Both the position numbers and the translations under genes were made by a program. 64,000 nucleotides of DNA from Bacteroidota bacterium (lineage in GTDB: Bacteria > Bacteroidota > Bacteroidia > 2-12-FULL-35-15): positions 14,205 to 78,204 of the forward strand of contig JAJTCJ010000001.1 of the NCBI GenBank assembly GCA_021323165.1, read 5' to 3'. Below, in pieces: positions 40,101-60,228 of this stretch (position 1 is its first letter; the number at the start of each line of letters is the position of its first letter). The notes under the pieces were generated by a model. That model was not told the origin of the DNA, made no database searches, and saw only the letters and a program-made list of their open reading frames with translations.

Positions 40101-40239
40101 CAGTTATTATCGGTGGATCAATGGAAGGATATTCACGAACTCCTAAAAAAGTATATCCTATACCACCAAAAAGGATGATAATAAGGCTCATAACAATTGC
40201 CAGAACAGGACGATTTATGCTGATGGAAGAAATATTCAT
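37183..40239 (-). CDS. RND efflux permease (AcrB/AcrD/AcrF family)
   Basis: SINRPV, GLVVDDGIVVTEN, GLVTKNGILIVEFA, RLRPILMTS; 1018 aa. Confidence 0.96.
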   Translation of the reverse strand: MNISSISINRPVLAIVMSLIIILFGGIGYTFLGVREYPSIDPPIITVRTNYSGANADVIESQITEPLEKAINGIEGVRTISSSSNQGSSTITVEFNLNSNLEAAANDVRDKVSQAIRQLPQDIDGLPTVTKSDANSDAILSLTLQSDTRTQLEVSDFAENVLAERLQTIPGVSTIQIWGQKKYAMRMRIDPVKLSAYGLTPQDVKLALDKENVELPTGKVAGNNTELTLKTIGRLKTEEDFNNLLIKSEGDQVIRFKDIGTANLGPENEETILKLSGTPMIGMGLVPQPGANYVEIADEFYKRLEEIKKDLPKDYVVDTALDNTVFIKKSIKEVAETLLIAIILVVLIIYLFFRDWLIAFRPLIDIPVSLIGAFFIMYLMGYSINVLTLLAIVLATGLVVDDGIVVTENIYKKIEDGLPPVQAAHEGSKEIYFAVISTSITLAAVFMPVIFLEGFVGRLFREFGVVLAGAVLISAFVSLTLTPMLNARMVRKSHKKSRFYEMTEPFFERMTNNYADSLKIFLRRRWLAIVILFASVGLIFGLGSLLQSELSPLEDRNWMRVSLTAPEGASFEYTDNFVDKFTQFVIDSIPEKRICLTVTAPGFTGSGAVNTGFVRLALVDASQRDRSQQQIADYIMKESKKFPDGKIFVIQEQTISAGGARGGLPVQFVLQAPNFDKLKQVLPKFLEAANKNPVFQGVDCNLKFNKPELNITIDRDKAKNLGVSVADLAQTLQLALSGQRFNYFTMNGKQYQVIGQFERSNRDEPLDITSIYLKNNRGQLVQLDNIVTITEQSSPPQLYHYNRYQSATVSAGLAPGKTVGDGIKEMEKIAQEVLDESFTTSLTGASRDFAESSSNILFAFLLALLIIYLILSAQFESFVDPFTIMLTVPLALAGAILSLWYFNQTLNIFSQIGIIMLIGLVTKNGILIVEFANQLKEKGKSKKEAIQEAAAARLRPILMTSIATALGAMPIALALGAGAKSRMGMGIVIVGGILFSLVLTLYVIPAVYSYLSKEKKHD

Positions 40240-40247
40240 TAAATGCT

Positions 40248-41306
40248 TTATTTTTTTAATTGTATGATCCGGACTTTCATTTCCGGTTTAATAGACATGA
40301 TCCCGGTTGTAATAACGGTATCTCCTTCATTAAGACCCGAAACAATCTCAACCTTTGAATCTGTCCTTAAACCTGTTTCAACTTTTACGGGGAAGGCTTT
40401 TCCGTTCTTCACGACATAGATCTTATTTCCTTTCATTTCAGGAATAAGTGATTCTGTTGGGATCATGAACGAACGTTTCTTGCTGGCAATAAGCTCAACT
40501 TTGGCAAAGGCGCCTGGATAAACATTGGAGGCAGAGTTAACATAAGAAGCTCTGATCATAATGTTTCTTGTTAGAGCATCTATTTTTGGTTCAATAGCGG
40601 CAACTTTCGCATTGAGTTTTTCTTTGAGTCCTTCAACAGAGAATTTAACTGTATCACCAACCTTAACCAATGCAGCATATTTTTCCGGAATTGAAAAATC
40701 AATCTTTAAGATTTCGGTTTGCTGTATACTTGCAATCACAGTTGCATTACTTACAAAACTTCCTTCGCTTACAGATTTCAATCCTATCTTTCCTGAGAAA
40801 GGAGCACGGATCTCTGTCTTGGCAATCTGAGCTCTTGTGAAATCTAAATCCGCCTGGATCGTTTCCAGCTCGTTAGCGGCTATATCGTATTCCTCCTGGC
40901 TGATTCCTTTTATCTCTAAAAGCCCTTTAACTCTTCCTTCTTTTTCTTTGGATAATTTATACTGAAGGTTCAGTTTTTTCAACTGAGCCTGAAGATCAGC
41001 GTCATTGATCTTTGCGAGAAGCTCTCCTTTTGTAACATTCGTGCCTTCTTTAAAAAGGACAGAAATTAATTTTCCTGACATTTCGGGTCTTAATTCTACC
41101 TCTTCAGCAGCAAGGACAGTTCCGCTGGAATAAATATTATTATTTAACATTGTTGATGTAGCAATATATCCTGTAGCGTTTGCCACTGATGCTTTCTGAG
41201 CACTATTTTTAGGGAGATCCGAATTTTTCGGTTTTAGAAAAAAGATCTTTATCAGGACCAGAGCGGTAATTATAAAAATAATTATTATTAAAGTTTTGTT
41301 CTTCAT
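40248..41306 (-). CDS. RND periplasmic adaptor (membrane fusion protein)
   Basis: N-terminal anchor, ELRPEMSGK, IRAPFSGKIG, IPTESL, VETGLR. Confidence 0.93.
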   Translation of the reverse strand: MKNKTLIIIIFIITALVLIKIFFLKPKNSDLPKNSAQKASVANATGYIATSTMLNNNIYSSGTVLAAEEVELRPEMSGKLISVLFKEGTNVTKGELLAKINDADLQAQLKKLNLQYKLSKEKEGRVKGLLEIKGISQEEYDIAANELETIQADLDFTRAQIAKTEIRAPFSGKIGLKSVSEGSFVSNATVIASIQQTEILKIDFSIPEKYAALVKVGDTVKFSVEGLKEKLNAKVAAIEPKIDALTRNIMIRASYVNSASNVYPGAFAKVELIASKKRSFMIPTESLIPEMKGNKIYVVKNGKAFPVKVETGLRTDSKVEIVSGLNEGDTVITTGIMSIKPEMKVRIIQLKK

Positions 41307-41791
41307 GCTTTTTCTTTTTTCGCTTTTTTATAATTGATATAGATCTTTTGAGATGGAAGGGGTTCAAGATTACTCTGAACTAAGTGAACACATCTGTAAA
41401 GTTCTTTTTGCTGTTCTTTCGTAAGTCCTTTAAATGCTTCTTTATTTAATGAATCGATGGCTTCGTGTATCTCCGGCATTATCTCCCGGGCTTTAGAGGT
41501 CAATTCGATAAAGTGTTCGCGTCTGTCATTCGGATTAACGGTTTTCTTCACATACTTTTTTTTGAGCAGATGATCGAGGCGGCCAACCATTGTTACTTTA
41601 TCTATTTTAAGACAATCGCAAATACACTGTTGTGTGCAGCCGGCTTGGGCGCTTTCCACAAAAATGAGAATGGAATAATCCCGTTCAATATCCAGGTGCT
41701 CAAGCCGTTTTGTAAGCGCACCAAAATATGTCTTGGCAAATATGGCCAGTAAGCGCCCAAAAGGAAGAGATTCTATTAATAATTCATTCAT
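41303..41791 (-). CDS. MarR family transcriptional regulator
   Basis: IDKVTMVGRLDHL...NPNDRREHFIELT winged-helix motif; heads the efflux operon. Confidence 0.9.
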   Translation of the reverse strand: MNELLIESLPFGRLLAIFAKTYFGALTKRLEHLDIERDYSILIFVESAQAGCTQQCICDCLKIDKVTMVGRLDHLLKKKYVKKTVNPNDRREHFIELTSKAREIMPEIHEAIDSLNKEAFKGLTKEQQKELYRCVHLVQSNLEPLPSQKIYINYKKAKKEKA

Positions 41792-41810
41792 CGATTTAAA
41801 ATTCGCAGGT

Positions 41811-41851
41811 CAAAATTAGTTAAAATAATTAATAGTTAAGATTATTAACTA
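41811..41851. promoter_or_regulatory. marR -7 element overlapped by two palindromic operator-like sites
   Basis: Minus-strand TAATTTTG 41811-41818; perfect TAGTTAA-N5-TTAACTA 41833-41851 and imperfect TAGTTAA-N5-TTAATAG 41817-41835. Confidence 0.65.
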
Positions 41852-41914
41852 ATATTTATTATATATTCATATGTTGGCCTAAAACTTTATTCCATTTAAA
41901 ACCGTATTTAAGTC

Positions 41915-42877
41915 ATGACCTGTAAGAAAAATGTATTGTTGCTGTTACTAAGCTTAAGCATTATCGAATGCGATGGGCAAAGCGACAGCATACCTGAAAA
42001 AGCAGAAAATTATTTTCGTTACAGTTATGACAACGATTTTTTCAGTGCAACTGATCGTTATTATACCCAGGGAGTCAGGCTGGAACTAATTCTTAAACCT
42101 TTAAAATATAATCCGCTTTCTTATCTATTATTAAAATTTAATAAAGGAGGTAAGAATTATTACGGACTTGCATTTGAAAGAGACGGTTTCACTCCCAGAA
42201 GTATTCGAGTTGATTCTCTGTATGTTGGCGAAAGACCTTTCGCTGGCGTTTCATTTCTGTCATCTTTCTTAGTATCGCTTGATCAAAAAAAAGAGCAGAA
42301 ATTATACACACAGCTGGATCTTGGTATCATGGGTCCGGCTTCTTTGGGAGAAGAGGAGCAAAAATACATTCATCGTAAATTAAACAATATTCAGCCATTA
42401 GGCTGGGAATACCAGGTAGCGAATGATATTGTTGTTAATTATATGCTACAGTATGAAAGGGGTATTTTAATGAAAAGGTATATTGAATTTATTGGAGGGG
42501 GCGAAGCCAGGGTAGGCACCTTGTATGATGATGTAAGCGCGGTTGGAACATTTCGTTTAGGAAGGATGCATAATTATTTTTCCAGCCTTGGAATTTCGAA
42601 ATATCCGGGATATAAAAAATTTCAATTTTATGCAATCCTAAGAGGAAGAATTAAAGCAGTAGCCTATAATGGAACGCTTCAGGGAGGAATGTTCAGCAAA
42701 AGTATTTATACTATCGAACCTCAAAATATTGAACGTTTGGTGGCCGCAGGCTCTTTCGGTTTGGTTATCGCATACAAACGTGTGAGCCTTGAATATACAA
42801 AATGGTATATTTCTCCTGAATTCCGCAATGGACTTTCTCATGGTTGGGGTCATTGTAATATCTCTGTTTGTTTTTAA
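41915..42877 (+). CDS. LpxR-family (DUF2219) outer-membrane beta-barrel, putative lipid A deacylase
   Basis: YDNDFFSATDRYYTQG, ERPFAG, GWEYQV, C-terminal aromatic residue. Confidence 0.82.
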   Translation: MTCKKNVLLLLLSLSIIECDGQSDSIPEKAENYFRYSYDNDFFSATDRYYTQGVRLELILKPLKYNPLSYLLLKFNKGGKNYYGLAFERDGFTPRSIRVDSLYVGERPFAGVSFLSSFLVSLDQKKEQKLYTQLDLGIMGPASLGEEEQKYIHRKLNNIQPLGWEYQVANDIVVNYMLQYERGILMKRYIEFIGGGEARVGTLYDDVSAVGTFRLGRMHNYFSSLGISKYPGYKKFQFYAILRGRIKAVAYNGTLQGGMFSKSIYTIEPQNIERLVAAGSFGLVIAYKRVSLEYTKWYISPEFRNGLSHGWGHCNISVCF

Positions 42878-42967: not shown

Positions 42968-44257
42968 ATGAAAATGAAGTTTTTACCTATTGTCTTAATG
43001 TTACTTTTCCCGCTTTGTCTTTTATCTGACAAGGTGAACATGAGCAGCGGCACTAAACACGTTGAAGTGAGAAAGCAGGGAAAAAATTATAAACTGTATG
43101 TTAATGGTTCACCCTACTTTATCAAAGGAGCGGGTGGGTACACCCATTTTGAAGATTTAAAAAAATATGGAGGGAATTCCGTTAGGCTCTGGAGCACGAT
43201 CGGGGCTAAGAAATATATGGACAAGGCCCATGAACTTGGATTGACTGTTACTTTAGGTCTTGATATGGAACTTGAAAGAAGAGGGTTTGACTACAACAAT
43301 AAGAAAGCAGTTGCAGAACAACTAGAGCGTCTAAAAAAGGAAGTCCTTGCGTTTAAAGATCATCCCGCTTTATTAATGTGGGGAGTAGGAAACGAGCTGG
43401 ATCAGTTTGCTCAGAATTATAATGTCTGGAATGCTGTTAATGATCTGGCTAAATTCATCCATGAAGTTGATCCGCATCATCCAACTACAACAATGCTTGC
43501 AGGAGTGCCCTTGCACCACGTAAAGGAGATCATGAAGAGGGCTCCTGAAATAGATGTATTATCCCTTAATGCGTTTCTCGATCTTCCGAATGTTCGCGGA
43601 CACCTGAACCGTGCCAATTATAAGGGCCCTTATCTTATCGGAGAATGGGGGGCTTCCGGATATTGGGAATCACCATTAACTCCGTGGGGTGCATTCATAG
43701 AACAAACGAGCACAGCGAAAGCCGAAATGGTGGAGCAATATTATCAGTCTGCAATAGCCGGCCACCCTGACAGGTGTCTGGGTTCTTATATATTTTACTG
43801 GGGATACAAGCAAGCGCGTACTCACACTCTTTTGAGTATGTATTTGGAAAGCGGGCATGAAACGGGCATGCTTGACGTAATGGAAAAATACTGGACAGGA
43901 AAAGATCCCGCTAATAAAGCACCCGAAGTGTTGCCAATTGGTATTGATGATAAACAAACCCATCTTGGTGTCTACCTGGCGCCCGGATCTTCTCACATGG
44001 CTTACACGGATTGTAAAGATCCTGATAACGACACATTATATTATTATTGGGAAGTCTTTCATGAAAGCCAGGAAAAGAAAGAAGGCGGAGACAAAGAGGA
44101 AAAGCCTGAAGCAATCGATGGCTTGATCATTAATGGAAAAGGTAAAGCTTTGTCTTTTAAGGCACCGAACAAACCAGGCCCTTACAGATTGTTTCTTTAT
44201 GTTTATGACGGCAAGAATAAAGTGGCTACAGCAAATGCACCGTTCTATGTGAATTAG
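42968..44257 (+). CDS. Secreted clan GH-A glycoside hydrolase (GH2-TIM-like, probably GH158/GH157-type) with C-terminal Ig domain
   Basis: Signal peptide; NGSPYFIKG, GGNSVRLW, WGVGNE (E143), YLIGEWG (E226); Ig-like tail PGPYRLFLYVYDG. Confidence 0.8.
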   Translation: MKMKFLPIVLMLLFPLCLLSDKVNMSSGTKHVEVRKQGKNYKLYVNGSPYFIKGAGGYTHFEDLKKYGGNSVRLWSTIGAKKYMDKAHELGLTVTLGLDMELERRGFDYNNKKAVAEQLERLKKEVLAFKDHPALLMWGVGNELDQFAQNYNVWNAVNDLAKFIHEVDPHHPTTTMLAGVPLHHVKEIMKRAPEIDVLSLNAFLDLPNVRGHLNRANYKGPYLIGEWGASGYWESPLTPWGAFIEQTSTAKAEMVEQYYQSAIAGHPDRCLGSYIFYWGYKQARTHTLLSMYLESGHETGMLDVMEKYWTGKDPANKAPEVLPIGIDDKQTHLGVYLAPGSSHMAYTDCKDPDNDTLYYYWEVFHESQEKKEGGDKEEKPEAIDGLIINGKGKALSFKAPNKPGPYRLFLYVYDGKNKVATANAPFYVN

Positions 44258-44558
44258 ATCTAAAGAAAAATTAACATTTGATTTATATTCTTACGTAAGT
44301 TTGTTTTAACCTGAATCAATTCATTCTATTCAATAAGTTAATGATTAACCGAAGCGGATGTTAAAATACATTTGCAGATGATCTTATTTCTATTCAATAG
44401 TATCATCGTAAGTTTTAGAATAAGCTGTATGTAAAATTTATTTGAAATTTATCCGGACCAGATAAATTTATTATCATCTAAATAAGATAAAATAGGAATC
44501 AATAAGATCATTAAGTATTGAAAAAAAGAAATAACAAACCTATTATAAATGAGTGTTG

Positions 44559-46994
44559 TTATTTTTCAGTATTCATCGTTAACAATGCGCTCATATGTGT
44601 GTTTAGCGATTGAACCCATCCGGCCAGTCGCATATGACTTACTTTTGTTTTATCAGGATATTGCATCGCGATATTAACAGTTTCCAAAGGATCATTTTTA
44701 AGATCATACATTTCAGTTATGTTCTTTGTCGCATTGAAAATGTATTTTTTATCTCCCTCTCTGTAACCAAAAAGAAAATCAGCCCATGGGGTAAAAAAGA
44801 AAACCCGGTCTGATTCGGTTTTAGTAAACAGATCACTTCCCTGCCATTTTTCAGAAACAGGAAGTCCCAGCTGATTCATAATTGTTGGAGCAAGATCTAC
44901 CAGGCCTCCAATACCGGGCTGATGTTCTCCTTTAAACGAAGGATTGATTAACACACATGGTACATGAAGATTTTCTTCATAAATACCTGAGGCATGATTA
45001 AATTGATTGTGTCTTCCGAATGCCTCACCGTGATCGCCAACAACTACCACAAGAGTTGATTCTGACAATCCATTATTTTTAAGATCATCCAATAATTTCC
45101 CTAAAACCTGATCACTGTGATTAACTGCATTTAAATATTTATTGAACATCGGATCAGGTGTATAAAATTTTTCATTCCCGGAAGTAAAATACGGATAGTG
45201 GGTTTGATAGGTCCACATCATGGAAAAGAAAGGTTTGTCTTTTTCCTGATTTATCCAGCTCATCATATCGTCCGAAGTGCAGATGTCATCTTTCCCATCA
45301 AGAAAATCCCAGTTCTTATCGTTTACTTCAAAGTGTTTACTGCATTCGACAGTGCTGCAATCTTTAATATTATCGAATTCCCTGTTGGCTAAAAATTCCC
45401 CGGCTTTTTGAAAACGATTATCTGCAGAATTAAAAAATGCTGTGCGGTACCCATGCTTTTTAAGTTCAGAACTGATCGTAGGAATCTGAATGTCCGGATG
45501 TTCTTTTGTTATGCTGTTATAAGATAACCAAGGATACACCGATCCCAAAATACTCACCATTGAATTGTTTGTGGCTGGAGCATGCGCATAAACATTATCG
45601 AATACAATCGATTCTTTAAGGTGTTTTTCCAGTTCAGGTGTTATTTTATATGTTCCGGAGTACGGTTGAACATATTCTGCCGGAGTTGATTCCATTACAA
45701 AAACGATCACATTTTTAATTGCGGAATTTTTCTTTGATTGGGTTGTGATATTTAATTTCGGGCTCAAATCAAATTTTAAACTATCCTCTACATCCATTGT
45801 AAAAAGTTCCGGATCCTCGGAAAACGGGCCCAATGAACTTGTAAAGGCAACCACCGGATTGGCAAGCTTATTATATTCCCAATTATAGTGCTGAATTGCG
45901 TCAGGTGCAAGAGTTATATAAATTGCACTGCTGCAAACCAAAGAAGAAAGCAAAGTTCCTTTCATTCGTAATTTCTGAAGGAGTATATCTGTAACAAGAA
46001 TAATTGTCATTACAGAAATAAAGGCCGCTGTACAAACCATAAGGATTTGCAGGCAGTATGTAAGAGAAATATTTGAAGTCACAGCAGCCTGCGCATCCGA
46101 ACTTTTCAGGAAATCAGAATAATATAACCATGGATAGTTAAAAGGTTTTCCTATTGTCTGCACCACACGGATGTTCAAAATGCCGGCAACAAAAGAGAAC
46201 AGTGCTAGTCCTATGAATGATCCTGTCAGATATTTCTCTGCTTTAGGTTTGTGTCTGAAAACTTTAAGCAGAATCAGGAAAACTCCAGCAAGTATCAGGG
46301 TGTAAACAACATCATAAAATCCGGCCCACAGAACTTTTGGAAAGGATCTGAAGGGATGAAAGTATAGATCCCAGCATTGTCCCGTTACTGAAGAACGTAT
46401 AAAAACCAATCCCAGAGAAAGCACTATCGCAGTGGCCGCAATAATTTTTACCGGACCGGCATATATTGGCATTCCTTTAAAGCGGTAGGATCTTAATATC
46501 AGGAAGAAGAAAAATAATATTGTTGATATACTCAATAGCGGAATTGCAAAGTCGAGAATTGTTACCGGATCGCCCGGGCGGATCTTTAATTTGGATGGAA
46601 TAAGAACGGTATTGTTATTTATCGCCATCGTGTGATAGTCTTTCTGCGGCTCTTTATTAGTGTCCCAGATATCAACAGGTTTTTTTGCCGGTCCTTTTGA
46701 TATCCAGAATACATAATCTATCATCGTGTTCTTCGGGACTTTGAGATCTACCACAAAACAATGAGCCTTTTTTTTCATCGGACTAAAAACAAGATTGTCT
46801 TTAATATACGATCCTTCAGGCCTTAAGGATGTCGCAGCGATCTGCCAGTTGTTGACTCCCCAAACAAAAAACATTTCTTCTGCCTCTGAAGTTACATACC
46901 TTATTTCTTGTTTCACAAGAGTATCATTAACCTGTGCACAAATAATCGCAGGTAAAATATTTAAGAAGGCTAAAAACACAAGTAATCTTTTCAT
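44559..46994 (-). CDS. LtaS/BcsG-like membrane phosphotransferase (alkaline phosphatase superfamily) with N-terminal CBM25/53-like domain
   Basis: Signal peptide; VWGVNNW...IDYVFW...WDTN...DYH; 5-6 TMs; VFVMES, APATNNS (Thr nucleophile position), QTHYPY, GDHGE. Confidence 0.78.
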   Translation of the reverse strand: MKRLLVFLAFLNILPAIICAQVNDTLVKQEIRYVTSEAEEMFFVWGVNNWQIAATSLRPEGSYIKDNLVFSPMKKKAHCFVVDLKVPKNTMIDYVFWISKGPAKKPVDIWDTNKEPQKDYHTMAINNNTVLIPSKLKIRPGDPVTILDFAIPLLSISTILFFFFLILRSYRFKGMPIYAGPVKIIAATAIVLSLGLVFIRSSVTGQCWDLYFHPFRSFPKVLWAGFYDVVYTLILAGVFLILLKVFRHKPKAEKYLTGSFIGLALFSFVAGILNIRVVQTIGKPFNYPWLYYSDFLKSSDAQAAVTSNISLTYCLQILMVCTAAFISVMTIILVTDILLQKLRMKGTLLSSLVCSSAIYITLAPDAIQHYNWEYNKLANPVVAFTSSLGPFSEDPELFTMDVEDSLKFDLSPKLNITTQSKKNSAIKNVIVFVMESTPAEYVQPYSGTYKITPELEKHLKESIVFDNVYAHAPATNNSMVSILGSVYPWLSYNSITKEHPDIQIPTISSELKKHGYRTAFFNSADNRFQKAGEFLANREFDNIKDCSTVECSKHFEVNDKNWDFLDGKDDICTSDDMMSWINQEKDKPFFSMMWTYQTHYPYFTSGNEKFYTPDPMFNKYLNAVNHSDQVLGKLLDDLKNNGLSESTLVVVVGDHGEAFGRHNQFNHASGIYEENLHVPCVLINPSFKGEHQPGIGGLVDLAPTIMNQLGLPVSEKWQGSDLFTKTESDRVFFFTPWADFLFGYREGDKKYIFNATKNITEMYDLKNDPLETVNIAMQYPDKTKVSHMRLAGWVQSLNTHMSALLTMNTEK

Positions 46995-47006
46995 GATACG
47001 TAAAAT

Positions 47007-50000
47007 CTAATAAACCTTAATCGGAACAGAGGCGGTGGCCACATTCCCGCTCTCATCACTCACGTGCAGATATAATCTGTAGGTTGCTTTTTTTTCCGGG
47101 ATCATAACTCTTGCTTCCGATACATTGTCTGTAGAGCTGATCGCATCTATTTTTTCCAGGTATTCATATTTTTGAAGGGTCCATTCGTAGTTCAAACCTT
47201 CTTTATCTCTGCCTTCTACAATTGCGGTGAAAGTGAATTCTTCTCCGGGTCTGATCTTGTCAGGGGCCTTAATTCTGCAGAATCCAGCTGTATATTTCGA
47301 ATCTTTTCCTGTCCATAATTTTTTCAAAGCGTGGTAAGAAGCTTTGGGTCTTCCGCTATAGTCTGTAAGTCCGAACCATGTGTGAGTCCCTTCCATCCTG
47401 TCGTGCCAGCAATATGCTATTCCTCCAATGTTATAGCCGGCATTTCCTTCAACATATTTAGTCCATTGTTCAGTATACCAATCTGCTTTTTCTTTCTCAC
47501 TGTCTTCAACTAAAAGTGTTCTGGAAGTTCTGTTATACTTAGGATCCCAATATCCGCGAGGCCCGAATTCGGAAATAACATAAGGCCTTGTAGAATCGAA
47601 CTGATAGAACACATGATTGAGTTTTGAGATCTGTTCTTTATAATAAGAGTTTATTCCTATAACATCTACTGAAGGTATAGCGTCATGATAAGCAACAAGT
47701 TCTCCAGGCAACTGATATTCTTCATGTTCCATACAACTAAAAACAGGTCTGGTCGGGTCGATCGCATGAATACGCTGAGCAAGTAATTCGATCATGTTAA
47801 CATAGCTCTGACGAACCTTTGTCAGGTAAGGCTTGTTAAAATTATGCTTAAGCAATCCCCAGGTTTCATTACCAAGCGACCATGCAAGAACAGAAGGATG
47901 ATCTTTAAATTCACGAACCATTTCTTCTACACCCGCCATGTATTCTTCAACCTGTTCACAATCCTTATAATAATCAACTTTCGGATCAAACCAAAAGCCA
48001 TACAAGACATTCAGATTATACTCACCGGCAATATTGAGTACATTTTTATCATAAATTCCATGGTCATAACGTCTGATCGTATTAGCTCCCATCTCTTTAA
48101 TTTTCTGCATATCTTTTTCAACCTGTCTTCTGGTTAATGGCATATTTCCATCTCTCCAGTCATGCGCTGTATTATAGGCTACTCCTTTTATATAGAAAGG
48201 TTTTCCTTTGATCATCAACTTGAAACTTCCTGTATTTCCAGTGATAAATTTTGAATGATATTTTTTATCAGGTTGTACTGCTATACTCGTGATGTCATAA
48301 AATGTTTCTTTATTGAAAGGAGAAGCAGACATGCTTTTTTCAATGCTCACAATGGTATTATTATCAGCCAGATTAAAATCTGAAACATACTGTTTACCAT
48401 TTATATATTTCGGTTTTGTCTGATCAAACAAAATGGCTGCATGTATCTCTTTGTATTTTTCTTTAATATTCCTGAAAGCGTCCGATAACCATTCTCCCTG
48501 CTGGTTGCTGGAAACTGAACCTAACTCAGTGATTATGTAAGGTTTTTGAAACTGACTGAAACTGGTACGGAATGGTTCATATAATTGAGCAAATGAATAT
48601 CTGTTTTTAGCATTCAATGCTGCTTCATAATTCAAACAGCTCACTCCGATCCAATCAAGGAATTTAGGTCCGGGATAAAAAGCGGTTGAAGTTGAATACT
48701 TTGGATTCCACACCCAGGTTACGTTAGAGGTTCCGAGATCATTAAAGAATGTATAGATGTATTGCCATGCTTTTATAAATTCCTGCGGTGAATTGGAAGT
48801 ATGAGTAAGGCCGTCATTATCATCAAAGCCCGGAGAAAAGTTAATGAGCACTGGGTCTTGGAATGCTCTCAGAGTTCCTGCGAAGCGCTCAAGATAATCA
48901 TCATACTTTCCTGAAGATATGCCTTTCCACATTTCATCATTGATCAAAGGTGTTTGCCATATGATCATAGGCATGGTTTTCAAGCCTTTAATTTTAGGCA
49001 GATTTTGATTGATCGTTATAGTGGTATCCCAAGGTTCTTTAAATGAAACAATCTCTGAATTATTATCGAAAAGAACATTTGTATTATTTATTTTTTTAAG
49101 ATCAATTTTTTCATCCAACGTTATTCCGGTGAAAAACCCGCCAAAATCCTTTTGCTTTATTGAGCTACCCGTTTCTTGTTCATTATCGATACTGTTATAG
49201 CTTAAAAACAATAAAGCACTCCCGAGTAGCAGAGCTACAGGTCCATTTCTAAGCAAACCATAAATAATGTGTTGGGTTTTGTCTGCCACCACATGAATAT
49301 TTTTATTTAAAACAGATACTAATGAAACAGAACTCATTTTAACCTGAAGATTATCAAGGAATTTCTGCTGGCTCATAAAAACTATCAGTCCAAGCATTCC
49401 GGCATTTATCAATGCATAAAATGCCATGGCAAGACTGTATGGGGACCAATCCAATGTTAATCCATAAGCGATACCGATTCCGCAGATTAGCGCTATAATA
49501 AAATTCGGAATGCTTAATTGCCAGTAGTTTTGATGCTCGTCTTCCTTTGGAGTCGGTATATAAGGAACTTTAATGTTAAAAATGGCATATATAAATCCGA
49601 TTAAAAAGATCCACCAGGTTGCTGTGCGCAATATTCCTCCTGCCAGATGAAATCCCCGTTCGTGTTTTTCAAGTAACCACCGTTGTGCGAAAAGCCTTAT
49701 TATCATTGATAATCCACATAAAGGAATAAAGAACATCCCGAAATTCTGCAGATCAACTTCCCATGGTACTTCGGCAAAAGATAAGGCCAGCAAAGGAACG
49801 AGGATATCAATAAAATTGATCAGGCCAAAAAGGAAATACATTGGAATGGTGAAGTAATGTATTTTTTGTCTCCACGTGAAATTTTTATAAAGTTTTGGGA
49901 AGGTGTTGAACAACAGATCAAATGTGCCTCTTGACCATTTAAGCTGTTGTTTATAATAAGATGATAGTGTTGCCGGAACTAATCCGCGGGTTAATATTTC

Positions 50001-50867
50001 AGGAATGTAAATAGATTTCCATCCTTTTGCATGCAGTTGCATGGCAGTATGCATATCTTCTGAGAGTCCAGCGGCATGCCCACCAATTGAATCCAGCGCA
50101 CTTCTTCTAAAGGCACAGTTTGCACCGATAGCCTGAACAGTCCCGTAGGTATTCATGCACATCATCATGGGACCATAAAAGTGATATGTTTGTTCAGCGG
50201 CTCCTCTCGCAATTATACTTTCATTCTGATTGCCGTATGCCTGGACGCTCTGAACAAAACCTATTTCCGGATCTTCAAAATAAGGAAGAACGCGATCGAT
50301 GAATTCAGGAACAGGGACGTGATCGGGATCCAGGACAATTGCAATATCACCCGTTGCTTGTTTCAAAGCATTATTAATATTTCCTGCTTTTGCATTTATT
50401 TTTTCAATCCTGGTAACGTGGATAATTCCTAATTCATCACAAACTTTTTTTAACACCGGATCATTTCCTTCATCACACAGATAGTTTGTATGAGGATAAC
50501 GGATCTCTTTCATAGCACGCAATGTGCGAATAATCATTTCCTGTGGTTCTCCCGGGCAGGCAGTTGTAAGAATATCGACTGTATATTTGGTTTTTAATTC
50601 CGGACGGACAGGAATGCTGAGGCTCCAGTAGTGATACCATTCATGCAGCATCTTTACCATTTTAAAGAGCAAAGCAATGGTCAGCAACCAAAATATGGGC
50701 TTATAGCCAATATGTGCCGGGCTGATAAACCACCAGACAAAAATGCCCATTAACCCAAGTCCGCATCCAATAAGGACACGAATTGTCCACACGTCTTTCT
50801 TTTTTATTTCCGAGATCTTTATAGTCTCATTTTTAGTGTTTTCGTAGCTTTTCATCATTCCCTTCAA
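47007..50867 (-). CDS. Processive GT2 polysaccharide synthase fused to a GH26-like and a clan GH-A (GH158-like) domain
   Basis: CDEG, KAGNIN, DPDH, SED, QQLKW (49935-49949), TM block; GH26-like WVWNP, DWIGVS, IITELG; then KGKPFYIKG, WSLGNE, VISEFG and Ig tail. Confidence 0.85.
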   Translation of the reverse strand: MKGMMKSYENTKNETIKISEIKKKDVWTIRVLIGCGLGLMGIFVWWFISPAHIGYKPIFWLLTIALLFKMVKMLHEWYHYWSLSIPVRPELKTKYTVDILTTACPGEPQEMIIRTLRAMKEIRYPHTNYLCDEGNDPVLKKVCDELGIIHVTRIEKINAKAGNINNALKQATGDIAIVLDPDHVPVPEFIDRVLPYFEDPEIGFVQSVQAYGNQNESIIARGAAEQTYHFYGPMMMCMNTYGTVQAIGANCAFRRSALDSIGGHAAGLSEDMHTAMQLHAKGWKSIYIPEILTRGLVPATLSSYYKQQLKWSRGTFDLLFNTFPKLYKNFTWRQKIHYFTIPMYFLFGLINFIDILVPLLALSFAEVPWEVDLQNFGMFFIPLCGLSMIIRLFAQRWLLEKHERGFHLAGGILRTATWWIFLIGFIYAIFNIKVPYIPTPKEDEHQNYWQLSIPNFIIALICGIGIAYGLTLDWSPYSLAMAFYALINAGMLGLIVFMSQQKFLDNLQVKMSSVSLVSVLNKNIHVVADKTQHIIYGLLRNGPVALLLGSALLFLSYNSIDNEQETGSSIKQKDFGGFFTGITLDEKIDLKKINNTNVLFDNNSEIVSFKEPWDTTITINQNLPKIKGLKTMPMIIWQTPLINDEMWKGISSGKYDDYLERFAGTLRAFQDPVLINFSPGFDDNDGLTHTSNSPQEFIKAWQYIYTFFNDLGTSNVTWVWNPKYSTSTAFYPGPKFLDWIGVSCLNYEAALNAKNRYSFAQLYEPFRTSFSQFQKPYIITELGSVSSNQQGEWLSDAFRNIKEKYKEIHAAILFDQTKPKYINGKQYVSDFNLADNNTIVSIEKSMSASPFNKETFYDITSIAVQPDKKYHSKFITGNTGSFKLMIKGKPFYIKGVAYNTAHDWRDGNMPLTRRQVEKDMQKIKEMGANTIRRYDHGIYDKNVLNIAGEYNLNVLYGFWFDPKVDYYKDCEQVEEYMAGVEEMVREFKDHPSVLAWSLGNETWGLLKHNFNKPYLTKVRQSYVNMIELLAQRIHAIDPTRPVFSCMEHEEYQLPGELVAYHDAIPSVDVIGINSYYKEQISKLNHVFYQFDSTRPYVISEFGPRGYWDPKYNRTSRTLLVEDSEKEKADWYTEQWTKYVEGNAGYNIGGIAYCWHDRMEGTHTWFGLTDYSGRPKASYHALKKLWTGKDSKYTAGFCRIKAPDKIRPGEEFTFTAIVEGRDKEGLNYEWTLQKYEYLEKIDAISSTDNVSEARVMIPEKKATYRLYLHVSDESGNVATASVPIKVY

Positions 50868-50921: not shown

Positions 50922-50948
50922 AAAAAAACCACGCGTAAAGCGTGGTTT
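50922..50948 (-). terminator. Intrinsic terminator downstream of the 51035-51499 gene
   Basis: Stem AAACCACGC/GCGTGGTTT, 5-nt loop, U-tract on the minus strand. Confidence 0.85.
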
Positions 50949-51034
50949 CAATTTTCAGAATTCATATTAACCAATAAAACTTATGACTCTGATTTTTAAA
51001 AACAAATCAAGTTATAATCGGACCGGATTTATTA

Positions 51035-51499
51035 TTATACCCCGGATTCTCCTGATTCATCTTCTCTATTATATTTCTTGGAGTCAAGTCCTGATCCCAT
51101 GGATCTCCCTTCACCTCCTAATTCAGTGTTTTCACCACCTTTAGAGTTTCCAAGATTTTTATTCTTTCTCAGGTCGAGTTCGGCCTTTACATCATTATCG
51201 CCTTTGGCTTCAAACGGATCGTTTTCCCAATCCTCTACGTGTATGGATTTACTTTCACCTGTTATTCCACCTGTTTCTTTCCCTACTTCACCACCTTCAC
51301 GTTTATTGTCAACGGCCATGCTGCCTTTACCCAGGCGACCTTCTTTTCCTAAACCTTCAATATCTTCTTTTTTATTGGAAACTTCTCCCATACCACGGCC
51401 CGGTGTCTTCTTTTCCTCCTCTTTTTTACCTAGAGAAGCATTACTTTTATTTGTTAATCCGTTGCCGTTTTCATCTGTCGTTTTCATAATAACCTCCAT
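51035..51499 (-). CDS. Small Gly/Glu/Lys-rich, probably disordered hydrophilin-like protein
   Basis: 154 aa almost free of hydrophobic or aromatic residues; followed by its own terminator. Confidence 0.7.
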   Translation of the reverse strand: MEVIMKTTDENGNGLTNKSNASLGKKEEEKKTPGRGMGEVSNKKEDIEGLGKEGRLGKGSMAVDNKREGGEVGKETGGITGESKSIHVEDWENDPFEAKGDNDVKAELDLRKNKNLGNSKGGENTELGGEGRSMGSGLDSKKYNREDESGESGV

Positions 51500-51650: not shown

Positions 51651-53783
51651 ATGTACAAATACTTCCCTAAGATATTTATAGTTTCTTTTTTTTGCTTGCA
51701 GGTTTTTATTTGTCAAGGACAGATTCCTCAGTTTATTGTAAAGGGTGAATCTTCTTATACTGATACTTTAAAAAAACCAGCTCAAAGCAATACTTTAACA
51801 GCTTTAAGAGCTCATAATTTCCTGGGAGCTTATTATGAAGGAATTAGTAATTATAAGAATGCTCTTTTTCATTTATATAAAGCAGACAAATTAAATTCCG
51901 GTAAATACAGCGATGAAGAAGTTTTTTGCAGCAATTATCTCGGATACATTTACTGGCACAAAAGCGATTATAAGATCGCCTTATATTATCACAATAAAGC
52001 TCTTTCCTTAAGCAACGACCCAGGAGTTAAGAGGGCGAATGTCGCATTTACGTATCTATTACTGGGTGAGGATTATTATGACCTGGGCGATTACGAAAGG
52101 ACATCAGAATATTTTTTTAAATCTCTGAATTTGTCGGAATACATCAATGATAGTGTAGGACAGATCATGTCCCATAATAGGCTTGGAAAACTTTATTATA
52201 AGCTGAAAGATTTTCCTCGTTCCAAAGAACATGCATGGAAAGCTATGAATATAAACAAGAAAATAGGTTATATCCGGGAGCTAGCTGTTTCAAATAATTG
52301 TTTAGGTAATTCTTATATCGCCACAGGAAATACAGATTCGGCAGTCCTTTGCTTTAAGCAGGCTCTTTTTTATTTTAAAAAATGCGGAGATGTTATAGGT
52401 CAGGCAATAGCAAGCATTAATCTGGGAGATTGTTATAGTGAATTATATAATAAGTTATCAGACATGGCAATCCTTGATCAGGCACACGACTATTATAAAA
52501 TGTCTTATATGTTAAATGAAAAAGTGAATAATAAGTTCGGAATGATCTACGGGCTTTGGGGTGTTGCTGATATTGACATGATAAAAGATGAAACCGGGTC
52601 TGCATTAAAAACATATCATAAAGCACTTCACCTTGCCAGGCTTATCGAAGCAAGAAGTGAACAATATAACCTGTGCTGGAAAATTCATAAAGTATATGAG
52701 AAGAAAGGAACTAAAGACAGCAGTTATGTTTATCTGAAGAAATACGTAGATCTTAAAAATTCAATGGAAAACGAAGAGCAGACAAAAATGCTTTTACGTC
52801 AGGAAAGCAAATATGAGATCACGAAGAAAATTAATGAGAAAGATGCTGCTTTAAAAAAGGATATGTTAATCGAGGAAGAGAAACAAAAGAGAAAAAACTT
52901 TGTAATCCTTGCTATTATTTTAATAACAATTGTATTGGGAGTGGCTGTTATCATTTCTTATAGGAGACTTCGTACAATTCGTTCACAGAATCAAACGATA
53001 AATTCAATTAATAACACATTAATAACTCAGAAAAAAGAAATTACTGACAGTATCACTTATGCAAGGAGAATACAGGAGGCAATCCTTCCTTCAGAAGCAT
53101 TGCTGAAAGAGGCATTTCCGGAAAGTTTTGTTCTTTACCTTCCTAAAGATATTGTTGCAGGAGATTTTTACTGGATGGAACGGCAGGGGGAGAACACTTT
53201 GATCGCAGTTGGCGATTGCACCGGTCATGGAGTTCCGGGAGCAATGGTAAGTGTAATTTGCAGTAATGCACTAAACAGAGCGGTTTTAGAATTTGGAATA
53301 ACAGATCCCGGTAAAATTCTTGATAAAACCCGGGAACTGGTTGAGGAAGCGTTTTCAAAAAGTGATAAAGATGTAAATGATGGGATGGATATTTCTCTTG
53401 CAAGCATTAATCTGAAGTCCGGAAGGGTTCTTTGGGCAGGAGCAAATAACGCCTTATGGTATATCTCTTCTTGTCAGTTCCATGAGGTTGCTCCACATAA
53501 ACAATCTATCAGCAAAACAGAAGGCTCAAAGCCATTTCCAACACATTCAGTTCAATTAAATAAAGGAGATATTCTGTATATGTTCACTGATGGTTTCGCA
53601 GATCAGTTTGGTGGTGAGAAAGGAAAGAAATTCAAGTATAAGCCGTTAAAGGAAACTGTGTTCAAAAAATCAAACATGGCTATGGCCGAACAAAGAGAAG
53701 TTTTAAAAATGATCTTTAATCAATGGAAAGGCAATCTTGAACAGGTGGATGATGTCACCATTCTTGGAATAAGGATAGGATAA
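51651..53783 (+). CDS. Membrane sensor: periplasmic TPR repeats, TM, SpoIIE/PP2C phosphatase
   Basis: TPR-like repeats, TM ILITIVLGVAVII, KDIVAGDFYW, GDCTGHGVPGA, DGMDIS, FTDGFADQFGG, VDDVT. Confidence 0.9.
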   Translation: MYKYFPKIFIVSFFCLQVFICQGQIPQFIVKGESSYTDTLKKPAQSNTLTALRAHNFLGAYYEGISNYKNALFHLYKADKLNSGKYSDEEVFCSNYLGYIYWHKSDYKIALYYHNKALSLSNDPGVKRANVAFTYLLLGEDYYDLGDYERTSEYFFKSLNLSEYINDSVGQIMSHNRLGKLYYKLKDFPRSKEHAWKAMNINKKIGYIRELAVSNNCLGNSYIATGNTDSAVLCFKQALFYFKKCGDVIGQAIASINLGDCYSELYNKLSDMAILDQAHDYYKMSYMLNEKVNNKFGMIYGLWGVADIDMIKDETGSALKTYHKALHLARLIEARSEQYNLCWKIHKVYEKKGTKDSSYVYLKKYVDLKNSMENEEQTKMLLRQESKYEITKKINEKDAALKKDMLIEEEKQKRKNFVILAIILITIVLGVAVIISYRRLRTIRSQNQTINSINNTLITQKKEITDSITYARRIQEAILPSEALLKEAFPESFVLYLPKDIVAGDFYWMERQGENTLIAVGDCTGHGVPGAMVSVICSNALNRAVLEFGITDPGKILDKTRELVEEAFSKSDKDVNDGMDISLASINLKSGRVLWAGANNALWYISSCQFHEVAPHKQSISKTEGSKPFPTHSVQLNKGDILYMFTDGFADQFGGEKGKKFKYKPLKETVFKKSNMAMAEQREVLKMIFNQWKGNLEQVDDVTILGIRIG

Positions 53784-56149: not shown

Positions 56150-58021
56150 ATGAAAATTCTTTTCTCTTTTGTTTTTTTATTTCTGTCAGCATCTGGTTTG
56201 TACTCTCAGGCAGGTCAGCTGAAATATATAATCTATGATTTTGATGGTCTTGATCTCGGAGTTACTGATCTGCCTGATGGGGATTACAAAAACTTCGATC
56301 TTACTTATGAGATTTCTGCGAACCCTTTGGCAGTCAGTGATGTGCTGGGCGACCGTGTGTTAAAACTTAATCTGATGTGGTCTGGCGGAAGCGGGGAGTT
56401 TGGAAAGGGAATCACAAGGTATATTGAGCTAAATGCTTCAAGCGACCACCTGAATTTTTATTTTTTAAATCCGGTTTCTAATTATGCAAGCGCTGTTGTT
56501 GATATTGCTATTAAAGAGGATGATAACCAAAATGGAATTTATGAAGTTTCTGCTGATGATAATTGGTTGAAGACAATAACTATCCCCAAGTCATCTGCCT
56601 GGCAGTTGATCAGTGTTCCTTTGTCTGATTTTTCAGATGCTTCAAGCGGAGGCAATGGTATTTTTGATGCTGCTTATACGAGTAATAAAGGCAGAATTTT
56701 TACTATCAGTTTTAAATTTAACAGATCAGCTGCAGCCACGGGACCTGAAACTTATTATGCTGATATGTTCTGTTTTTCAGAAGGAACATTACCGTATGGC
56801 AACTCAATTCTTTCTCTTCCTTTCGATAATTCAAATAATAAATGTCTGCTTGGAAGTTATGCTTACCGAACGCCTGCGGATTCTGTACCACCAGAAGTGG
56901 AAGCTTTATTATCTCCCGGCAATAAGCTGAAGTATATTAATATTTTTATGCCATACGCATATAACGGAACAACAGCTTCAGCACTTCCGGGCGCATCAGT
57001 TCAGAGATTAATGAATAACGGTTATCGCCCGATTATAACCTGGGAGATGATGTATGCTTCGTATCAAACCATGGATCCGGTCCAGCCAAGATTAAACCAG
57101 ATAACAAATGGTTCTTTTGATAGTTACATCGATCTGTTTGCGAATCAGATCAAGACTTATTCAGATACGATAATTATACGTGTGTTTCACGAATTCGATG
57201 GCAATTGGTATTCGTGGTCAATAGAAGAGAACGGACAAGACCCTGCAAATCTGGTTGCAGCATACAGATATATCGTTGACAGGTTTAATGCTCTTGGGGT
57301 TGATAATGTGCTCTGGATGTGGTCTCCCAATTCTTCTCCCTCTCCCAATGTTTCATATAACTGGTTTGTGGATGCTTACCCGGGAGACGCATATGTTGAT
57401 ATTGTGGCGACCAGTATATACAATCATCCGTTAACAGGAACACCTCCGTGGCGTTCTTTCAGATCATTGCTATCCGAAAACTATTATTATATGCGGAAGT
57501 ATTTTCCATCTAAGCAGTTTTTTATTGCTGAAGCGGCTTGCAGGGAAAGATATGGGAATGAAATGTCATCCTCACAAACAAAGGCGGAATGGATATGTCA
57601 GATGAGTAAGGATCTTAAATCATATTTTAATGCGACTAAAGCACTTGTCTTTTTTAATGCAGATAAAGAACACGACTGGAGAATTAATTCTTCTGCCCCG
57701 GCTTTAAATGCACTGAGTAACTGTGTATGGAATGATCCTTACTTTAATAATGCTTTAACTGAAGTTATAGAGAAAAAAGAGAATGGTTCATTTGAAATTT
57801 ATCCGAATCCTTTTATTGAAGAGATTACTGTTTCTGTTTTATCAGAAAAAATGCTGCAGGAGGATTATTATTTGAATGTAATTAATATACATGGACACAA
57901 AGTTTATAATAAAAAAGTTTTAAGAAGTCAGACTATTGGCAAATCATTTCTGCCAGGAACATATATCCTTGAATTGAAAAACACCAAGCACTCTGAAAGG
58001 CGAATAATTATTAAACAATAG
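56150..58021 (+). CDS. T9SS-secreted GH26 with N-terminal CBM11-like domain
   Basis: Signal peptide; beta-sandwich WQLISVPLSDF; RVFHEFDGNWYSW acid/base, AYPGDAYVDIV, FIAE nucleophile; CTD IYPNP...GTYILEL. Confidence 0.85.
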   Translation: MKILFSFVFLFLSASGLYSQAGQLKYIIYDFDGLDLGVTDLPDGDYKNFDLTYEISANPLAVSDVLGDRVLKLNLMWSGGSGEFGKGITRYIELNASSDHLNFYFLNPVSNYASAVVDIAIKEDDNQNGIYEVSADDNWLKTITIPKSSAWQLISVPLSDFSDASSGGNGIFDAAYTSNKGRIFTISFKFNRSAAATGPETYYADMFCFSEGTLPYGNSILSLPFDNSNNKCLLGSYAYRTPADSVPPEVEALLSPGNKLKYINIFMPYAYNGTTASALPGASVQRLMNNGYRPIITWEMMYASYQTMDPVQPRLNQITNGSFDSYIDLFANQIKTYSDTIIIRVFHEFDGNWYSWSIEENGQDPANLVAAYRYIVDRFNALGVDNVLWMWSPNSSPSPNVSYNWFVDAYPGDAYVDIVATSIYNHPLTGTPPWRSFRSLLSENYYYMRKYFPSKQFFIAEAACRERYGNEMSSSQTKAEWICQMSKDLKSYFNATKALVFFNADKEHDWRINSSAPALNALSNCVWNDPYFNNALTEVIEKKENGSFEIYPNPFIEEITVSVLSEKMLQEDYYLNVINIHGHKVYNKKVLRSQTIGKSFLPGTYILELKNTKHSERRIIIKQ

Positions 58022-60005: not shown

Positions 60006-60228
60006 GATATTAATTTTTAGTTACTTAATTATACAATAAAATTTCATGCTATATACCGGCATGAGCTTTCCGGAGCGGAACAACGCTTAAAAGCCCGTCA
60101 ATGCAGACTTTACGAAGGTTGATCTATGTGGATGATTTTCCTCTTTTGGTTGCGTTTAAACAAACTTGTATTGTTTCTTTTATCAATTTCAGTTACTTTT
60201 AAGCTTTCCCTCAATTCTCATTCTCTTT

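Follow-up and report, generated by a model that had tools for sequence, protein, structure and literature searches.

In a 64,000-nucleotide stretch of DNA from a member of the Bacteroidota (GenBank assembly GCA_021323165.1, contig JAJTCJ010000001.1, positions 14,205 to 78,204; hereafter the window), three neighbouring genes probably make up a synthase-dependent system for a beta-glucan containing beta-1,3 linkages. The largest gene (47007..50867, minus strand) opens with a TTG start and encodes a 1286-residue fusion of a family 2 glycosyltransferase (GT2), an extra transmembrane segment (TM), a barrel resembling glycoside hydrolase family 26 (GH26), and a GH158 barrel with an Ig-like domain, as judged from the open reading frame (ORF), profile searches and structure-sequence matches. 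Next to it lies the gene for an 811-residue LtaS/OpgB-type phospho-headgroup transferase (44559..46994, minus strand; profile and motif conservation), and facing both is that for a free, secreted GH158 of 429 residues (42968..44257, plus strand; sequence match and signal peptide). We consider the product most likely to be a beta-1,3 or a mixed beta-1,3/1,4 glucan, because of the specificity of GH158 enzymes (PMC13195107) and the lichenase-like GH26 parts of the system. Our evidence comprises domain identities, a topology read from hydropathy, the degree to which catalytic residues are conserved, and the linkage and co-occurrence of the genes. An earlier note on this DNA, made from its letters alone, had also proposed a glucan of this kind; its sequence-level claims have stood up, while the trimming role it gave to GH26, the BcsG likeness it saw in the transferase, and its contrast with NdvB are corrected below.

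The three long ORFs, of 1286, 811 and 429 residues, are laid out as previously described, except that the gap between the synthase stop and the transferase start counts to 12 nt rather than 13. In the public protein cluster the synthase begins four residues later, at an ATG at 50855 (12 nt downstream), giving a protein of 1282 residues. A spacer of 301 nt separates the transferase gene from the convergent free GH158 gene. The sequence suggests that synthase and transferase form an operon with its own promoter, because a terminator-like hairpin (50925..50949, minus strand) lies just upstream of the synthase gene.

In a sequence search against solved structures, synthase residues 86–399 match BcsA (4hg6/4p00, E 3e-38), and the cellulose synthase profile TIGR03030 (CelA) matches residues 86–495 (E 7.7e-50). 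By profile and PDB alignment, the cytoplasmic GT2 catalytic domain (residues 87–320; 49908..50609, minus strand) carries D, DPD, SED and KAG, with QQLKW at residues 307–311. Behind it, hydropathy delimits a channel-forming membrane region (residues 321–556; 49200..49907, minus strand) that contains TM3–TM6, an interface helix, YIPTPK (residues 436–441, corresponding to the FxVTxK-type gating loop), a 38-residue cytoplasmic linker, and TM7. These six motifs align to 4hg6 (E 2.5e-39) and are each at least 98% conserved in 117 homologs, so that the GT2 motifs named in the earlier note are nearly invariant. The order of segments, two TMs before the GT2 domain and then four TMs and an interface helix, is that of BcsA; the linker and the seventh TM (residues 537–555; 49203–49259, minus strand, from hydropathy) follow. 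This last segment is specific to the family, stands where BcsA has PilZ, and is kept even in members that end right after it, such as a Pontibacter protein of 598 residues. More than 117 full-length homologs, at 46–71% identity, indicate that the synthase is a conserved gene rather than a chance ORF. From its motifs and channel TMs, we predict that it is a processive membrane GT2 of the BcsA type.

It is not BcsA proper. A Pfam search finds no PilZ match in the synthase, the genome (89.6% complete) has no match to BcsB, the scores fall far below the cellulose synthase equivalog cut-offs (170 bits against 699 for TIGR03030, 120 against 992 for PRK11498), and the family forms a separate clade; public records call its members only 'glycosyltransferase' or 'cellulose synthase'. 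No gene resembling bcsB, bcsC or bcsZ is found among the neighbours, so the absence of a PilZ domain and of such neighbours, on which the earlier note had remarked, is borne out. We reject control of the synthase by cyclic di-GMP (c-di-GMP), given that there is no PilZ domain and that GGDEF likewise has no match in the genome.

The number of TMs after the glycosyltransferase domain is odd, which would place residues 560–1286, and with them both barrels, outside the cytoplasm, where the earlier note had also put them. The triple fusion it described is likewise recovered by Pfam, NCBIfam and PDB sequence searches and by fold matches to an AlphaFold2 (AF2) model of residues 540–1286, which has a predicted local distance difference test score (pLDDT) of 87 and a predicted template modelling score (pTM) of 0.86.

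The second of the two barrels (residues 880–1286 with its Ig-like domain, predicted periplasmic; 47007..48230, minus strand; sequence and fold match) belongs by sequence to GH158. Residues 920–1285 match GH158(Pro) (9oro, E ∼5e-33 to 5e-34) and BuGH158 (6pal, E 3e-26), and a Foldseek search with the model returns the same two enzymes at TM-scores of 0.77–0.79. A weak C-terminal 'PKD' match corresponds to the Ig-like domain, itself part of the GH158 fold (PMC13195107). In the alignment with GH158(Pro), Glu1001 (GNE) falls on Glu143, the acid/base, and Glu1100 (SEFG) on Glu229, the nucleophile; the pair is kept in 116 of 117 homologs. At other positions of GH158(Pro), the fused domain keeps W236 and E285 and has W77 replaced by Y, F278 by Y and Y291 by F. 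Thus, by alignment, the fused domain has both the family hallmarks and the residues that select for beta-1,3 bonds. The loops of the Arg104-Asp382 tunnel salt bridge are placed differently in it by HMMER and by MAFFT. GH158 enzymes strictly require the sugars in subsites -2 and -1 to be joined by a beta-1,3 bond, while the next bond, the one cleaved, may be beta-1,3 or beta-1,4; Glu285 of GH158(Pro) contacts O4 and O6 of the -1 glucose and is essential for productive binding (PMC13195107).

There are two ways in which an intact barrel of this kind could act on a nascent chain. The first is that it hydrolyses it; all characterised GH158 enzymes are hydrolases (PMC13195107), and we identify no sequence feature in the fused domain that marks a transglycosylase. 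The second is that it is mainly a transglycosylase, like the GH17 domain of NdvB, and joins ends or adds branches to give cyclic or branched beta-1,3-glucans. NdvB, the closest known architecture, does this with a GT2-tethered clan GH-A barrel (PMC10237404); the retaining mechanism of GH158, of which the covalent intermediate has been trapped, is a prerequisite for such a reaction (PMC13195107); and the region has a weak Pfam match to the GH72 glucanosyltransferases (6.5e-7). Weighing these points, we regard a mainly transglycosylating domain as improbable.

The first barrel (approximately residues 579–846, predicted periplasmic; 48330..49133, minus strand; AF2 model, fold match and alignment) is GH26 by fold and homology. 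Residues 635–819 match the Clostridium thermocellum lichenase Lic26A (E 1e-10), which is also the best fold match to the model (2bv9 and 2cip, TM-score 0.79–0.83). In the aligned segment at 48819–48842 (minus strand), however, the canonical RFAHEPDN reads NFSPGFDD; the acid/base His-Glu is replaced by Pro-Gly while the nucleophile Glu781 is kept, and the domain therefore has one of the two catalytic glutamates of GH26. Across the 117 homologs, both glutamates are present in 29, the nucleophile only in 40, and neither in 39; the Pontibacter vulgaris fusion is one of the more distant relatives in which both are retained. The earlier note was right to see a GH26 domain here, but the trimming it assigned to that domain is unlikely with the acid/base pair lost, and the domain is probably a non-hydrolytic, glycan-binding remnant.

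The transferase matches PF00884 (E 1.8e-41); among solved structures, VP1736 (3lxq) and several LtaS enzymes match it best. A signal peptide is followed by a 125-residue module, about six TMs (45903–46550, minus strand, by hydropathy), and a catalytic domain (44625–45716, minus strand, by alignment) in which the metal-binding Glu435, the nucleophile Thr475 (APATN) and Asp654-His655 line up with LtaS residues and do not vary among 16 orthologs. On this basis we assign it to the LtaS/OpgB/EptA-type enzymes of the alkaline phosphatase superfamily. It scores below the equivalog cut-offs for LtaS (74 bits against 970) and for phosphoglycerol transferase I (46 against 572). A formylglycine sulfatase is ruled out, as there is no C/S-x-P-x-R and the position reads A-P-A-T-N-N-S, with Thr. 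The earlier description of this protein as 'LtaS/BcsG-like' holds for LtaS, given PF00884 and the Thr nucleophile; BcsG identity is rejected, since no BcsG family appears among its Pfam matches even at E values up to 1, all of these being of sulfatase/LtaS type. The N-terminal module (residues 21–145; 46560–46934, minus strand) is predicted to fold as a beta-sandwich (pLDDT 86), and its best matches are starch-binding domains of carbohydrate-binding module families CBM20 and CBM25 (Foldseek E 2e-4, TM-score 0.5–0.65), which argues that the transferase acts on a polysaccharide.

We then compared the window with 37 related loci (38 in all). The only gene families that recur are the synthase, the free GH158 and the transferase, joined in seven Chitinophagaceae-type loci by a free GH26 that comes immediately after the transferase. 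In 31 of the 38, a free GH158 is encoded no more than 10 kb from the synthase; of the seven loci that have none, five are cut off by a contig edge near the synthase. The synthase and GH158 are paired across a range of architectures: with GT2 alone in Pontibacter akesuensis, with GT2 and a degenerate GH26 in Hymenobacter (two tandem pairs), with GT2 and an intact GH26 in Nibrella, and with the triple fusion, as in the window. The conserved core is thus the synthase and the free GH158, with the transferase as an accessory. We also sampled 401 Bacteroidota species evenly, one set of genomes covering 178 genera; the synthase family occurs in 16 of these genomes (∼4%) and in 15 genera, spread over many families. 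It is missing from the one other species in the sample that shares the genus of the window organism, from which we take the module to be accessory and patchily distributed. Transferase homologs (E 1e-40 or better) occur in five of the 16 synthase-positive genomes and in none of the 385 synthase-negative ones, and in four of those five the transferase is unlinked, lying on another contig or hundreds of kb from the synthase. The co-occurrence is therefore independent of linkage. The functional connection between the three genes that the earlier note supposed gains from these counts: free GH158 at 31 of 38 loci, transferase at 19 of 38, and transferase homologs only where there is a synthase.

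The free GH158, which the earlier note had described as a secreted paralog of the last synthase domain facing the operon, proves to be a genuine, convergently oriented member of the family (E 1e-82 to GH158(Pro) 9oro, E 2e-66 to BuGH158) with a signal peptide. It keeps the catalytic Glu pair and the equivalents of W77, F278 and W236, and its -1 subsite is remodelled (E285A, W290L and Y291L in GH158(Pro) numbering), a change that is conserved in ∼20 loci (for example L001:16808-18100 and L002:16584-17876). The fused and free domains are the only GH158 copies in the genome, and their mutual identity of ∼22–28% makes them old paralogs. The state of the two active sites differs by lineage. In the lineage of the window (∼20 loci) the fused GH158 is canonical and the free one remodelled, whereas the Chitinophagaceae lineage has a canonical free GH158 and a dead fused third domain (S/T-D in place of NE, and a deletion of the nucleophile segment); loci without a fused GH158 also have a canonical free one. 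At least one canonical GH158 site is thus found in each lineage, which argues that beta-1,3-directed activity is integral to the system. We speculate that the remodelled free enzyme would suit a substituted or branched substrate, as the residues contacting O4 and O6 have been lost. A tie between this remodelling and the presence of the transferase was considered and is not strict, six remodelled loci having no adjacent transferase.

Taken together, these data lead us to propose the following mechanism, in which we infer the sugar, the linkage, the choice between cutting and transglycosylation, the group transferred and the location of the product. The GT2 domain would polymerise a UDP-sugar, most likely UDP-glucose, and thread the chain through its own channel, at the exit of which TM7, in place of PilZ, would tether the two periplasmic barrels. 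The GH26 barrel, lacking its acid/base, would most likely only bind or guide the nascent chain, while the intact fused GH158 would cleave or transglycosylate beta-1,3 bonds, releasing the product and setting its length. The co-transcribed transferase, with its CBM20/25-like module, may then move phosphoglycerol or phosphoethanolamine from phospholipid onto the glucan, and the free GH158 with its altered -1 subsite may process the product or turn it over. We favour an oligo- or polysaccharide of limited length that is periplasmic or envelope-associated, comparable to osmoregulated periplasmic glucans or NdvB glucans, and prefer this to a secreted matrix polymer: the module has no conserved exporter, and its synthase holds a glucanase where the chain leaves the channel.

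Several observations weigh against this proposal, and those that bear on the identity of the polymer come chiefly from the GT2 domain. We built a maximum-likelihood tree of the Bacteroidota family together with RsBcsA, AtCrdS and SmBgsA (their sequences were transcribed from S1 Fig of PMC6821405 and contain optical character recognition errors) and a Sinorhizobium meliloti GT2 from locus L040. The Bacteroidota synthases form a separate clade on long branches, far both from BcsA and from CrdS with BgsA, and their core is 22–26% identical to these three proteins. Oehme et al. list positions that are specific to each subfamily (S8 Table); when these are located by means of the alignment to 4hg6, the synthase is a mosaic, being BcsA-like at 249H, 302Y, 351H, 357S, 359Y and 370P, and CrdS-like at 276Q, 318I, 322C, 376Y, 387T and 402F. 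Furthermore, the acceptor motif FFCGS is replaced by QAIGAN, which is unlike all three characterised glucan synthase subfamilies. Sugar and linkage are consequently drawn from the partner hydrolases only. The comparison with BcsA, CrdS and BgsA that the earlier note called for thus puts the synthases in a clade of their own and assigns no linkage, while its suggestion of a beta-1,3 or mixed-linkage glucan remains reasonable on the strength of GH158 specificity and the lichenase-like GH26. As to the hydrolases, the free GH158 of the window lacks an equivalent of Glu285, the residue essential for productive binding in GH158(Pro), and the transferase is missing from half of the loci.

The unusual acceptor motif also fits a polymer that is not a glucan, such as a beta-1,3-xylan, a mannan or a pentose-containing polysaccharide to which the GH-A barrels have adapted. 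Mannanases make up most of GH26, a family that also contains beta-1,3-xylanases, one structure of which (2ddx) is among our matches, and the nearest S. meliloti GT2 in the tree adjoins UDP-xylose-pathway genes and a GH26. At this locus, on pSymB (L040, CP140883.1 1260577-1269722), a BcsA-like GT2 shares an operon with GalE, a gene of the UDP-glucuronate decarboxylase family, two DUF995 genes and GH26. It provides a proteobacterial precedent for pairing GT2 with GH26, and we take it to be the arabinose-containing polysaccharide locus; with a GT2 and a GH26 behind UDP-xylose-pathway genes, it means that such pairing is no guarantee of a glucan. Nevertheless, we find a non-glucan product very improbable. 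By both sequence and fold, the best match of the GH26 domain is the lichenase Lic26A and not a mannanase, both GH158 copies keep the aromatic platform that binds curved beta-1,3-glucan, and no UDP-sugar-modifying genes accompany the module in the 38 loci.

A further difficulty concerns the location of the product. Across the 38 loci, the module has no conserved tetratricopeptide repeat (TPR)/beta-barrel protein, Wza, HlyD-type adaptor or exporter of another kind, which is not proof that the cell has none. An unlinked exporter would be needed if the glucan were instead a secreted exopolysaccharide or capsule, curdlan-like or of mixed linkage, that leaves by an unlinked outer-membrane route. The GH158 enzymes would then free chains and clear jams as BcsZ does, and the transferase, in the manner of BcsG, would stiffen the matrix polymer. 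A synthase with a cognate hydrolase is the rule in the Bcs, Pga, Pel and Ccs systems. Rhizobial mixed-linkage glucan is reported to be exported through an unlinked TolC (PMC13438883). In the window itself, a Lic26A-like GH26 of 623 residues, secreted via a type IX secretion system (T9SS), lies 5 kb away (56150..58021, plus strand; sequence match) and is a possible accessory of the system. It has a T9SS C-terminal sorting domain, an E value of 2e-28 to 2bv9, and an intact HE and nucleophile Glu, while its N-terminal 226 residues have no family match; the gene is kept in the three closest relatives. A secreted, intact enzyme of this sort suits an extracellular polymer better than a periplasmic one. 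A T9SS-sorted protein likewise lies between the two synthase-GH158 pairs of Hymenobacter; this protein, in Hymenobacter sp. DG25B (L036, CP010054.1), where the pairs are in tandem, has 738 residues and no other family match. Against an exopolysaccharide stand the lack of any exporter conserved with the module, the fact that the nearby efflux operon of the resistance-nodulation-division (RND) type is kept only in three close relatives, and the tethered glucanase itself, which retains processive-type GH158 residues and would cut a long polymer as it emerged. We therefore consider a secreted polymer unlikely, though the T9SS-secreted GH26 speaks for it, and favour a periplasmic or envelope-associated glucan.

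The favoured design has its closest counterpart in NdvB. In Pseudomonas and Bradyrhizobium, NdvB/'Orphan' is a fusion of a periplasmic GH17, a TM and a GT2 that makes cyclic beta-1,3-glucan, to which phosphoglycerol is probably added by an MdoB-like enzyme (PMC10237404). Like the window synthase, it combines a BcsA-like GT2, its channel and a periplasmic clan GH-A barrel directed at beta-1,3-glucan in one polypeptide, and does without PilZ, BcsB and BcsC; its product is periplasmic and bears phosphoglycerol through an MdoB/OpgB-like enzyme, much as we propose here. However, NdvB carries a single N-terminal GH17, for which the window synthase has no match, its own barrels (the degenerate GH26 and GH158) being two in number, C-terminal, and attached through an extra TM. 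The window system also adds a separate GH158 gene, an obligatory partner, and a co-transcribed transferase with a CBM20/25-like module, and it comes from another phylum. The earlier note had called it 'a route unlike OpgGH or NdvB', which overstates the difference from NdvB, where the design is the same and the GH modules differ; as to OpgGH, the genome has no match to MdoG (PF04349) and the GT2 is BcsA-like.

The osmoregulated periplasmic glucans (OPGs) of Escherichia coli are made by OpgH (GT2), OpgG and OpgD (GH186 beta-1,2-glucanases) and OpgB (phosphoglycerol transferase I) (PMC10514313). Common to them and the window system are a membrane GT2, periplasmic glucanases that set length, a PF00884-type phosphoglycerol enzyme and the lack of an outer-membrane exporter; the window GT2 is BcsA-like rather than OpgH-like, its hydrolases are the beta-1,3-directed GH158 and GH26 rather than GH186, and one glucanase is fused to the synthase. 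With Bcs it shares the GT2 fold family and motifs, a cognate periplasmic endoglucanase and a phospho-headgroup transferase (BcsG, for phosphoethanolamine cellulose), but it lacks PilZ, BcsB, BcsC and a c-di-GMP cyclase, its hydrolases are not GH8, and its transferase is not BcsG. Analogy therefore suggests that the window system works like NdvB, OPG and Bcs and yet is a member of none of them, because it has no GH17, no MdoG, and no PilZ, BcsB or BcsG. CrdS (curdlan) and BgsA/BgsB (mixed-linkage glucan) of the Rhizobiales are BcsA-like GT2 enzymes without a canonical PilZ, and their products are those proposed here (PMC6821405, PMC5567048). They are 22–23% identical to the window core, which falls in a separate clade, have no fused hydrolases and are controlled by c-di-GMP, and the partners of BgsA are an HlyD-like adaptor and TolC. 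Among hydrolases, the known GH158 members (GH158(Pro), 9oro/9p25, and BuGH158, 6pal) are catabolic laminarinases from polysaccharide-utilisation loci or metagenomes, whereas the window copies are tied to a synthase; unlike CtLic26A, the fused GH26 has no His-Glu acid/base.

A bolder proposal, which we put forward tentatively and think possible but on balance doubtful, is that we are looking at an independently assembled Bacteroidota counterpart of the osmoregulated periplasmic glucans. One protein would polymerise a beta-1,3(/1,4)-glucan and cut or cyclise it with its tethered GH158; the LtaS-like enzyme would capture the product by its starch-binding-type module and decorate it; and the free GH158 would be specialised for decorated or branched glucan, so that the complementary decay of active sites in different lineages would amount to subfunctionalisation.

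Bacteroidota are known as glycan degraders and, to our knowledge, almost nothing is known of their own synthase-dependent glucans. A literature search on GH158-synthase pairing, fused cellulose synthases and periplasmic glucans in Bacteroidetes found no description of this synthase family, nor did we find a report of periplasmic or curdlan-like glucans in Bacteroidota. Should our reading be correct, GH158 and GH26 enzymes, which genome surveys count as catabolic carbohydrate-active enzymes, are sometimes biosynthetic accessories; a synthase of the BcsA-like type works without c-di-GMP control; and the NdvB-style design of a synthase with a tethered glucanase arose again from different modules. 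The family would also offer a natural series of architectures (GT2, GT2+GH26, GT2+GH26+GH158, with live or dead barrels) in which to study how chain length is set at the channel exit, and could be a source of defined, substituted beta-1,3-gluco-oligosaccharides. Its carriers include cultivable Pontibacter and Hymenobacter, which makes it directly testable.

Some features of the surroundings remain to be described. In the Chitinophagaceae variant, a gene for a LEA_2 lipoprotein (WHy-type, water-stress-associated) of 152–154 residues directly follows the synthase (L021:14956-15414, L029:14993-15457 and three other loci), which hints at a link between the system and desiccation or osmotic stress. 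Adjoining the free GH158 of the window at 35817–42877 are a MarR regulator, an RND efflux pump (adaptor, AcrB-like pump and outer-membrane factor) and an LpxR-like lipid A deacylase of the outer membrane, an arrangement conserved only in L001, L002 and L033. We considered a wider operon and rejected it, as the MarR-RND efflux genes, LpxR, TPR-SpoIIE, a histidine phosphatase, PLD and the ORF at 51035–51499 are kept only in the two to four closest relatives. The TPR-SpoIIE genes (51651–53783 and 60166–62331, both plus strand) flank the area and are not conserved with the module; each of their paralogous products, of 710–720 residues, combines TPR repeats with a membrane segment and a SpoIIE/PP2C phosphatase domain. 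The ORF at 51035–51499 (minus strand) is the one immediately upstream of the synthase, and the terminator hairpin comes after its end; it would encode 154 residues of low complexity rich in Gly, Glu and Lys, and, with only one weak relative (in L033), may not be a real gene.

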